Origin: a virus
Taxonomy: Duplodnaviria > Heunggongvirae > Uroviricota > Caudoviricetes
Strand: one strand, 5' to 3'
Virus record (IMG/VR): IMGVR_UViG_2872169409_000001
DNA length: 40,324 nucleotides
Below are positions 6,001 to 9,000 of this stretch, one piece after another (position 1 is the stretch's first letter; each line of letters starts with the position of its first letter). A program made the position numbers.

Positions 6001-9000
6001 ACTTTGCCATCGCGTGTTTTACCGCTTTGCTGTATTCGCCATTCGATATCTTCAGGGCTGAATGGCTTATCGAATTTATTCAAATCCATAATTCACCTCA
6101 GAATGGACATGGCCCAAGGAAATAACGCTGGTTTAATACTTCGACTCTGGACAAATTAAGGCATACCCGCATTCCTTCGCGGTCACCATTATGGCGATAC
6201 CAGAGAGCTTTCTGCGTGTACATGCGTCTCTGTAACTTGCTCTCCTTCACTGTGGTTGCAAGTGACATGAATATCTCCTTCGTTACCGATTAATTCTTTC
6301 ATATGACGAATGAATTCTTCGTCTGACCAGTTATCTGTAAAACTCATTTCCTGCGACACCACGGAAGGTTGATAGCTGATTTCATCGCTTTATTTGCTTC
6401 AAGCCACATTTTTGAATCACCAATAAATCTGGCTATTACTGCTTTGTTCTGTGCAGCACGAAGCATCTGATGATTTATGGCTATTTCATTGCGCATAATA
6501 AGACCTCAACTCTTTTCCATCCGTCACGTAATTTACGGGTGATTCGTTCAAGTAAAGATTCATTTAGTTGGAAGGCACCCATGCGAGCGCCTCCCGCGAT
6601 TGCGTAAATCATGGGTGGTTCCTTATGTTGGTTTTATTAGTAGGTTATTTTTGTTGCGAATACTTCGCCTTTTACGATGGCTGTTATGATATTTTTAGCA
6701 ACATCTTCTGATGCACCAACCTTGATAAGGTCAGCAAGTATTTTGTTATTTACTTCTTTCCGGTGAGCTTTATCCTTTGCTCTACGCTCTTCTTCTTCCT
6801 TGATTCTTTTTTCTTCTGCTATTCTGGCTTGCTCTTTTGCTTCAGCATCGCGACGGATTCGTTCAGCCTCCTCCTGTGCTTTTCTGCGTTCTGCTTCAAT
6901 TGCTGCCTGCTTTTCTCTTTCAGCTCGTTCTGCTGCCTCTTTTGCTTCGCGCTGTGCTCGCTGCTCGGCTTCAATGCGTTCACGCTCTGCACGTTCCGCT
7001 GCGGCCTTAGCTTCTGCTTCTCGCCTTGCTGCTGCTTCAATTTCGGCTTTTGCCTTTGCTTCGGCTTCTGCTCTGGCTTTCTCTTCAGCTTCTCTTTTTA
7101 AGCGTTCTTCATGCTCTCGCTTTTCCTGCTCCGCTTTGAGTCTTGCCTCTTCTCTTTGGCGGTCAAATTCGCGATCCATCAAAATAGCTATTTCATGGTC
7201 AGACTCAATTTGCTTTGCGAGAGCTTCAGCTGCTGCCTTAGCTTCTTCTTCGGCTTTAATCCGCGCCTGTTCTTCCTCATAATCAGTAAGAGGCTGGCGC
7301 GCCTTGGCTTTCAGTTCATCAAGGCGATCGCGCACTGTCTTGCGGTTAGCATCAATTAGCTTTGGAATTTCCTTCAGTTCAGCAACAAGGTCTTTGCCAA
7401 GACCATCGAGATATGTTTTCGTCTGCGCAACTTTATACGCCAGAGAAGCGATCTCCTTTCTGCCCTTTGCCGTTGTGATATCAGGCACAAAGGACATAAC
7501 TTCACGTTCAACCTTTTGAAGGATTTCTTCAATCTGGTCGGCAGACTGAAATACAGTCATTGCATTTGCTTTTTCAATAACAACTAAATCTGTTACTTCA
7601 CTCATATATCCTCCGTCAAAAAAATTGCCCTCACACTGGAGGGCAAAGAAGATTTCCAATAATCAGAACAAGTCGGCTCCTGTTTAGTTACGAGCGACAT
7701 TGCTCCGTGTATTCACTCGTTGGAATGAATACACAGTGCAGTGTTTATTCTGTTGTTTATGCCAAAAATAAAGGCCACCGTCAGGCAGCCTTGTTGTTCA
7801 GTTTACCAAGTTCTCTGGCAATCATTGCCGTCGTTCGTATTGCCCATTTATCGACATATTTCCCATCTTCCATTACAGGAAACATTTCTTCAGGCTTAAC
7901 CATGCATTCCGATTGCAGCTTGCATCCATTGCATCGCTTGAATTGTCCACACCATTGATTTTTATCAATGGTCGTAGTCATACGGATAGTCCTGGTATTG
8001 TTCCATCACATCCTGAGGATGCTCTTCGAACTCTTCAAATTCTTCTTCCATATATCACCTCAAATAAGTGGTTTGCTGCCTAATTTCATTTTCTGGCGAC
8101 CAACACAAGTCACACCCATTTCACTGCGTGGCTTGCTGTACCATGTGCGCTGATTCTTGCGCTCAATACGCTGCAGGTTGCTTTCAATCTGTTCGTGGTA
8201 TTCAGCCAGCACCGTAAGGTCTATCGGATTCAGTGCGCTTTCTACTCGTGATTTCGGTTTGCGATTCAGCGAGAGAATAGGGCGGTTAACTGGTTTTGCG
8301 CTTACCCCAACCAACAGGGGATTTGCTGCTTTCCATTGAGCCTGTTTCTCTGCGCGACGTTCGCGGCGGCGTGTTTGAGAGTCCATATATCATCCTCAGA
8401 TAAATGGCCCCTCAGCGGGGCCGACAGTTATTGGCAGGTTGCGTACTTGCTGATGCAGGAGAAGATTTCCACGATTCGCGTCATTGTTGTTTCAGGACGC
8501 TTTGCTTCATCACGCATTGACTTCAACCAAGCCATAAAGTGTTCGTTATGTTTCATGTTCATCTCCTGTCAGTTAGCTTTGGTGGTGTGGTGGCTGGTAG
8601 TCTAGCTCCAGCTTGTTGAGTCTCATTCGGAGGGGTATAACCGGCACCCCAGCGATTTTTCCATGCGACAACGTGCGCGTTATGGCGGCCTTATCGCCCG
8701 CGGCTCCCCATCTCGTCCACGCTATTGCTAGCGTTGGGAGCGCTTCACCGCTCAACAGTAGGTAAGCACTTGCCAGTGACTAGCTGGCTTCACCACACCC
8801 CAAAGCCTTCTGCTTTGAATGCTGCCCTTCTTCAGGGCTTAATTTTTAAGAGCCTCACCTTCATGGTGGTCAGTGCGTCCTGCTGATGGCTTAAAATTAC
8901 AAGAAAGATTGTATGTTGTAAACAAGAAATATTGTAAAAAGGGGCGTGAAAAACAAACTCCATTGTTTTTAAATGAAAAATAGTTTGTTTTTGGTTATCG

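Follow-up and report, generated by a model that had tools for sequence, protein, structure and literature searches.

The stretch of DNA analysed here (hereafter the window; 40,324 nucleotides, IMG/VR virus record IMGVR_UViG_2872169409_000001) is a complete P22/Sf6-like prophage, whose closest phage matches, Sf101, HZ41 and IME10, show 96-98% identity over about half of its first 25 kb. On the minus strand its early-left operon is organised as cI, an open reading frame (ORF) of 158 amino acids, pL with the OL operators, nutL, a long leader, the antiterminator gene N, an ORF of 28 amino acids and ral. The pL leader of lambda is a textbook example of a regulatory region, and no immediate-early product of pL other than N is recognised. 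Here we describe how, in the window, a small gene cassette has entered this leader between the ribosome-binding site (RBS) that serves N in lambda and N itself.

Three-way alignment shows that the flanks are identical in lambda, Sf6 and the window up to GGAGA and from ATGGA on. Lambda and Sf6 have GGAGA-ATCCAG-ATGGATGCA here, such that the same RBS runs directly into N. In the window ATCCAG is replaced by a cassette that holds a gene of 42 codons, a GC hairpin with a U-rich tract and a new Shine-Dalgarno sequence (SD) for N (Table 1). This rare insertion is real and lies exactly between the original N SD and the N start codon. The original prediction of a small ORF, a hairpin and a new RBS inserted between nutL and N, with the lambda-type N RBS now in front of the ORF, is borne out by the alignments with lambda and Sf6, and boxB, the ORF, the hairpin and both RBSs all lie on the minus strand where it had placed them. 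It had further put the excess length of the leader over that of lambda at about 350 nt. The leader from pL to N is indeed longer (window, 501 nt; Sf6, 332 nt; lambda, 222 nt), but the excess over lambda is 279 nt, made up of 110 nt of leader interior and 169 nt (net) of cassette.

Table 1. Features of the early-left operon and N leader; positions refer to the window.
Feature	Position	Strand	Details or basis
cI, 434-type	9417-10049	minus	Pfam HTH_3 and Peptidase_S24
pL promoter and OL operators (434 type)	8891..8966	minus	identical to the Sf6 region annotated OL/PL
nutL	8824..8854	minus	boxA GGCTCTTA 8847-8854; boxB GCCCTGAAGAAGGGC 8824-8838
Structured N leader (predicted)	8576..8806	minus	closing helix 5' arm 8791-8806, 3' arm 8576-8592 with bulged A
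Sf6-type interior allele, enclosed by the closing helix	~8593-8790	minus	alignment with lambda
Ancestral N RBS, CTAACTGACAGGAG	8563..8576	minus	SD GGAG 8563-8566, 6-nt spacer; now precedes the 42-codon gene
Inserted cassette, 175 bp	8387..8561	minus	replaces 6 nt (ATCCAG) of lambda and Sf6
Gene for the 42-residue protein, MKHNEHFMAWLKSMRDEAKRPETTMTRIVEIFSCISKYATCQ	8428..8556	minus	ATG at 8556, TAA 8428-8430
GC hairpin, terminator-like	8406-8422, then AUUUAUCU 8398-8405	minus	GGCCCC-GCUGA-GGGGCC; terminator scan consensus flag
New N RBS	8384..8397	minus	SD GAGGA 8393-8397, spacer TGATAT, ATG 8384-8386
N, lambda-type antiterminator, 108 amino acids	8060-8386	minus	Pfam PF11438 (N36), E=5e-26; alignment to lambda and Sf6 N
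ral	7781-7981	minus	PF11058, E=2e-48

The cassette was found 100% identical in eight of the 5426 complete E. coli genomes; E. coli JCKP02 and TST3 are examples of carriers. Neither tblastn nor sensitive blastn gave a match to the cassette or its ORF among 50,697 phage records. Sf6, Sf101, HK446, HK544, HK633, mEp043 and mEp213 have a near-identical leader in which the SD leads directly to N (GGAGAATCCAGATG), and the cassette occurs in none of them. The suggestion that the leader of the window might simply be the common arrangement of characterised lambdoid phages therefore holds for its interior but not for the cassette. Among the cassette-bearing E. coli genomes and five IMG/VR contigs, the same cassette stands behind at least four different leader interiors, which means that it assorts independently of the leader allele. 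Its G+C content (0.463; 0.434 for the ORF) is lower than that of the leader (0.549), N (0.502) or the whole window (0.485), as far as such short segments can be compared.

In two of the eight genomes (H47 and H48) the match ends inside N. In the one of these two that was examined, E. coli Ecol_545 (L003, ~2716-2830), N is broken after about eight codons with ISEc12 (IS21-family, istA/istB) just downstream, and the small ORF is intact; IMG/VR contig L014 carries the same sequence as this locus. E. coli C1 (H48) has the same truncated match and so probably the same N disruption.

The new SD of N, six nucleotides before its start codon, is absent in lambda and Sf6, and N codons 2-3 (8378-8383) read GAC TCT (Asp-Ser) versus GAT GCA in lambda and Sf6. 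Codons 3-4 (UCU CAA) were found only together with the cassette (8372-8397, minus strand). The UCUCA in early N forms a 5-bp complement of UGAGG in the new SD region, and the SD-occluding hairpin this would give is present, but weak, in the minimum free energy (MFE) fold and absent in the centroid fold. The GC hairpin upstream of this SD has a predicted stability of -13.2 kcal/mol (z = -3.4) and is not conserved in other alleles of the cassette. The pentaloop of lambda boxB is GAAGA or GAAAA, both with A2 and A3. We considered the hairpin as a second boxB and rejected this, since its GCUGA loop lacks A2/A3 and other alleles have a tetraloop or no hairpin.

PGAP annotates the cassette ORF, with the same start, as a hypothetical protein (WP_000682198.1). 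An in-frame ATG at 8562, two codons upstream, would yield 44 residues; it abuts the SD without spacing, which makes the 42-residue start credible. A second allele, with 67-74% identity at the protein and 75% at the DNA level, is present on at least 18 metagenomic and genomic contigs. Half of the nucleotide differences between the alleles (16 of 32) are at third codon positions, and Nei-Gojobori estimates amount to a dN of 0.20-0.24 and a dS of 1.1-1.9, with dN/dS at 0.11-0.21 (Fisher test on rounded counts, p=1e-4). Stop codons abound in the remaining two frames. Among 1.84 billion representatives, an exhaustive profile search identified 10 relatives (representatives at 50% identity), and a second profile search 44 clusters at 90% identity, with lengths of 38-95 amino acids. 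They share the motif MKHN(E/Q)H.M.WL..LR.EA...(7)...R.IEI....A.YA, and the named sources are Klebsiella aerogenes, Citrobacter murliniae, Buttiauxella gaviniae, Pseudomonas veronii and the P. syringae group. The dN/dS estimates and this family bear out the earlier proposal that the ORF encodes a small peptide; judged by its substitution pattern, the ORF is shown to encode a real protein that has been under purifying selection.

The AlphaFold2 model of the protein consists of two helices, residues 2-19 and 25-41, with a mean predicted local distance difference test (pLDDT) score of 89.8. The protein is hydrophilic (grand average of hydropathicity -0.57), mildly basic (isoelectric point 8.8) and has no hydrophobic segment. 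Searches of the peptide and its relatives against Pfam and PHROGs gave best E-values of 0.067-0.27 that were inconsistent between family members, and NCBIfam and PADLOC zero matches for the family. Foldseek comparison of the model with PDB and BFVD gave none below E=1, a two-helix hairpin being too simple to inform. A literature search found no specific report of a small ORF upstream of N.

In all enterobacterial loci examined, to which a metagenome scan added two and a genome-species scan one, the gene is part of the leader of the leftward early operon and lies downstream of a cI-type repressor, and in most it directly precedes an N-type gene. At least three types of N follow it: the lambda type (MDSQTRRRERRAEKQAQW...), a second type (MKAREIRKLERARQHKEMK... 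or MTNREHKKLLRAIRHQQG...) and one like P22 gp24, which reads ...NARNRRRARRQAQREQ... or ...NAKTRRHERRRAAAIERD.... The distance from the ORF to the next gene is 10 nt, 36-41 nt (window and L004-L010) or 158-192 nt. The window has a gap of 41 nt with the strong hairpin. The second allele (36-39 nt) has a weak and different one, GCACA-AGGA-UGUGC, without a U-tract; in L037 the hairpin is broken; in L034 there is none, the stop codon overlapping the N SD (TAAGGAG) 10 nt from the start codon; and in L032 and L033 the ORF is upstream of the leader helix described below. More distant relatives (43-45 amino acids, 40-58% identical) are found among strings of small genes that lack annotation. An integrase, a PapB-like gene, a PAPS reductase or umuDC lies adjacent, and no antiterminator was called in the immediate vicinity. 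A scan of the neighbours of these distant homologues yielded a single PHROG, itself of unknown function, and nothing that hints at a role.

L006 has a perfect 13-nt direct repeat, GGAGGTCAACATG, comprising SD and ATG, on both sides of the cassette. As read from these loci, the position between leader helix and N behaves as a cassette site. Other inserts occur there as well: L010 (2795-2983) has an extra ORF of 62 amino acids (VNKHQFKSSRSMYRS...) between leader helix and N, and L006 and L009 (~2820-2990) have a segment of roughly 150 bp that contains an ORF of 11 codons and the terminator-like hairpin GCCTCTCGcaatgtCGAGAGGC, with TTTACC after it. In L010, L006 and L009 alike, the insert opens with a copy of the RBS motif GGAGGT(A/C)AA(C/T)(A/G)TG.

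The remainder of the leader is conventional. With lambda it has in common the transcript start region, boxB, a CAAAGC...GCUUUG element, the base of the leader helix, the N SD and the arginine-rich, boxB-binding motif of N (the PF11438 match spans residues 2-36 of N). The boxB hairpin is identical to that of lambda nutL and folds at -7.9 kcal/mol; boxA differs by one base (CGCTCTTA in lambda, GGCTCTTA in the window). The equivalent sequence of Sf6 and HK544 carries a nutL annotation, which in Sf6 is followed by the N homologue, gene 37. Positions 8562-8860 are 100% identical to Sf6, Sf101, HK446, HK633 and vB_EcoP-720R6 and 99.7% identical to HK544, mEp043, mEp213 and CurroJimenez_Bas106. The sequence shared with lambda runs from pL through GGCTTTGGGGTGTG and again from CACACCACCAAAGCTAACTGACAGGAGA onward, and the interiors between these flanks are unrelated. 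A segment of about 190 nt had been proposed to replace the lambda leader. This segment is real (Table 1), but it is not special, since it is 100% identical in Sf6, HK446, HK633 and Sf101; the interior of the window represents, by this comparison, the common Sf6-type allele and ordinary mosaicism through routine module exchange. The GGTGAAGC direct repeats put forward as a feature of the segment do exist, at 8742-8749 and 8787-8794, at a frequency expected by chance (three copies in the window versus 1.43 expected; at least three in 18 of 100 shuffles). Thus, while the cassette half of the proposed remodelling is a genuine rare variant of the lambda N leader, the interior half is already-known variation.

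The two flanks shared with lambda are joined by the closing helix as the base of a long stem-loop, predicted in both MFE and centroid folds, and the 511-nt whole leader folds better than shuffled sequence (z = -3.55). The helix was compared in 13 loci, namely lambda, the window and 11 others, which come from E. coli, Citrobacter, Buttiauxella and metagenomes. In 11 of the 13, which represent nine different arm pairs, the outer UUUGG/CCAAA pairs are retained together with the bulged A on the 3' side (GA in L033); those listed with the window for a maintained helix are L002, L004, L005, L007, L008, L011, L013, L033 and L034. The helix of L032 is only weak, and L037 has none in that scan, yet it has the same motif in its upstream sequence. 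The inner seven to nine pairs vary among loci by compensatory double changes (GGUGUGUG/CACACACC, GGUGUGGUG/CACCACACC, GACUGGC/GCCAGUC, GAUUGGAUG/CGUCCAAUC, GCAAGCG/CGCUUGC and GGUGAGUU/AACUCACC). The span inside the helix ranges from 75 to 227 nt, with interiors unrelated in sequence between alleles, and the leader is in effect, by this comparison, a hypervariable cassette inside a conserved stem. The value of this part of the analysis is solely the clear covariation support for the leader helix. That the leader might encode an RNA, also suggested originally, found no backing in Rfam, which gave no match at E up to 1 on either strand of positions 7800-9400.

The explanation we favour, and consider reasonably probable, is that the window has a mosaic lambda-type N leader with an Sf6-type interior and a recombined-in 175-bp gene cassette that specifies a trans-acting small protein. 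The comparisons show the insertion with its junctions, its rarity, purifying selection, the presence of the family on other mobile elements and, in enterobacterial prophages, its recurrence in front of different N types within the pL leader. A cassette would have recombined in at the N RBS, upon which the ancestral N SD would translate a soluble two-helix protein of 42 residues; its gene would become the first of the early-left operon and N would obtain a fresh SD. Since the gene is downstream of the cI-repressed pL and upstream of both N and the terminator-like hairpins that follow ral, it should be silent in the lysogen and made at time zero without N, as a second immediate-early product of pL at the start of infection or induction. 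As distant relatives lie elsewhere, the protein is expected to act in trans, on a host or phage target, rather than as an N leader peptide. By position, candidate roles are counter-defence, host takeover and modulation of N or of the lysis-lysogeny decision.

The insertion would also bear on N itself. PMC5725501, with reference to Wilson et al. 1997 and 2002, describes the lambda N leader as "highly structured" and implicates it in N autorepression and RNase III control: the nutL-bound N-Nus complex represses N translation, RNase III relieves this, and the RBS lies beside the leader helix. The window combines the features of a lambda-type antitermination leader, namely nut site, N motif and closing helix, with a helix-adjacent RBS that is that of the 42-codon ORF. 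Compared with lambda, the interior of the helix is another one, the SD drives the small gene, and N starts 169 nt further downstream, behind the hairpin and a new SD. N would thus be shifted out of the geometry of nutL, leader helix and RBS and behind a stable hairpin. Since the RBS beside the helix is now that of the small gene, this gene should come under autorepression and RNase III control, and N would either escape autorepression or feel it only indirectly, via coupling. Altered control of N translation is a reasonable expectation from this geometry, and the cassette offers a natural experiment on N translational autorepression, the helix-adjacent RBS being no longer that of N.

The ORF might instead work in cis as an upstream ORF (uORF), on which terminating ribosomes open structure or re-initiate such that N synthesis is coupled to the ORF and, via the captured RBS, to nutL/N autorepression and RNase III. 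Its recurrence directly upstream of N across three N types would fit, as would the overlap of stop codon and N SD in L034. In the MFE fold of the second allele the GGAGG of N is paired with a CCUC adjacent to the stop codon, and in the window 5 nt separate the stop from the downstream hairpin, which a terminating ribosome would presumably melt. We nevertheless consider a cis-acting uORF rather unlikely. Conservation is in amino acids and not in RNA; homologues occur away from any N gene; spacing and structure vary from 10 nt over 36-41 nt to a location upstream of the whole leader helix; the intercistronic sequences fold no better than shuffled ones (z = -1.5, -0.5 and +0.8); and N has a good SD of its own. 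The conserved peptide and the homologues in non-N contexts in particular weaken the idea of a leader peptide that acts in cis only. Similarly improbable, in our view, is that the hairpin with its U-tract is an intrinsic terminator or attenuator through which only N-modified polymerase, loaded at nutL, reads into N, giving positive feedback or a cap. The scan does flag GGCCCCGCTGAGGGGCC followed by ATTTATCT, the stem is stable, the hairpin lies downstream of nutL, and morons often bring their own terminator. The U-tract, however, is short and interrupted (A-UUU-A-U-C-U), and an efficient stop before N would block the first N synthesis. In other alleles the hairpin is weak and lacks a U-tract, or is absent (L034, L037), so that termination is not a conserved property of the cassette.

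Two further explanations are hardly credible. A fortuitous frame in a recombination scar, neither protein nor functional RNA, would agree with an ORF that is very short, rare and without annotation or family assignment, but not with purifying selection, with 44 homologous clusters that keep the frame intact across Enterobacterales and Pseudomonas, with a confident structure prediction, or with an inherited SD already used for N in lambda. Just as improbable is that the inserted or replaced leader segments are a structured regulatory RNA (small RNA, riboswitch or thermometer). The better-than-shuffled fold of the leader and the covarying closing helix could suggest this; the covarying helix, however, is the known lambda N leader structure and not new, the interior is hypervariable, Rfam found nothing, and the cassette is constrained at the protein level.

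Several points weigh against a recombined-in gene for a trans-acting protein. The dN/dS estimate derives for the most part from two diverged groups of alleles, in a gene of 42 codons, and translation of the ORF is predicted from its sequence and the selection signal. The family comes without functional annotation or informative fold match. Immediate-early timing is predicted from position, and the hairpin could stop some transcripts before N. N may also be affected in cis, as both the CCUC pairing of the second allele and the arrangement in L034 are compatible with translational coupling; the tight recurrence beside N may reflect a functional link to N instead of preference for a slot.

Among known systems, the cassette resembles a moron in that an extra gene, in one relative flanked by short direct repeats, stands between elements that are contiguous in Sf6 and lambda. 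It may also do so in its G+C content, seemingly lower than that of the leader, and in the terminator-like hairpin at its end, which in other alleles is different or absent. Unlike a moron, it has no own promoter that we could find and sits inside an operon leader, where it borrows the RBS of its neighbour. A scan of the minus strand from 8387 to 8890 found no sigma-70-like promoter, though with limited sensitivity since the same scan also missed pL. Insertion in an operon leader combined with a borrowed RBS implies that this should be a lytic immediate-early gene and not a conversion gene expressed in the lysogen. By analogy only, the cassette may be set beside the small early proteins of the lambda pL operon, cIII (54 amino acids), Kil (47) and Ral (66), and beside counter-defence genes that are expressed first, such as T7 gene 0.3 (ocr): its product is a very small soluble protein encoded in the early-left operon, at a position that would allow the earliest possible expression. 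The genes of cIII, Kil and Ral, however, follow N and depend on antitermination, whereas the 42-codon gene precedes N; its product showed no sequence or fold similarity to small pL-operon proteins or to T7 gene 0.3 (ocr). With leader peptides and translationally coupled uORFs such as trpL and ermCL it has in common a short ORF in a 5' leader, closely followed by a hairpin and the SD of the main gene. It differs from these in that the peptide is conserved and found outside the leader, in the lack of regulatory codon runs and in the lack of a conserved alternative-structure geometry.

A bolder version of the trans-acting protein, which we put forward tentatively as a possibility of rather low probability, takes the interval between leader helix and N as a dedicated pre-N slot, the only place in the pL operon for N-independent expression at time zero. 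The 42-residue protein would then be a new immediate-early effector, acting in the earliest counter-defence or host takeover or as a modulator of N, Nus factors or proteolysis, and its gene would rewire N autoregulation. Irrespective of such a slot, a conserved protein gene between nutL and N would mean that some lambdoid phages make a second protein before antitermination, with a timing that suits counter-defence or decision-making. The results also point to an uncharacterised family of small proteins from phages and mobile elements of Enterobacterales and Pseudomonas that falls below most annotation thresholds.

As for the other features, the immunity region is 434-like, as in Sf6. Read by eye, the putative pL hexamers are TTTACA (-35, 8917-8922) and TAATTT (-10, 8894-8899), and by alignment to the lambda pL start at 35582 the transcript would start with the A at 8887. 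The 158-residue ORF (9016-9492, minus strand) lies between cI and pL in the position of rex, as does Sf6 gene 38. As it overlaps the 3' end of cI, its real start is probably an internal Met, which is followed by a hydrophobic signal-like stretch; Pfam and NCBIfam gave no match for it. It is probably an accessory gene expressed in the lysogen.

Nine nucleotides past the N stop starts the 28-residue ORF, MEEEFEEFEEHPQDVMEQYQDYPYDYDH (7965-8051, minus strand), which is extremely acidic and shares 17 nt with the start of ral; the gene at this position in Sf6 is another one (gene 36). Its RBS, GAGGTGATATATG, is near-identical to the new N RBS, GAGGATGATATATG. It had no tblastn match, probably through low-complexity masking. 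The terminator scan flagged no tL1-like site in the interval from N to ral. Downstream of ral there are two terminator-like hairpins with good T-tracts (7771-7792 and 7625-7646, both minus strand), with which the pL operon of this phage may have its first real terminators. Also downstream of ral in the early-left operon there is an ORF of 340 amino acids (6637-7659, minus strand), whose long, highly charged, low-complexity centre is rich in E, K, A and R and probably forms a coiled coil.

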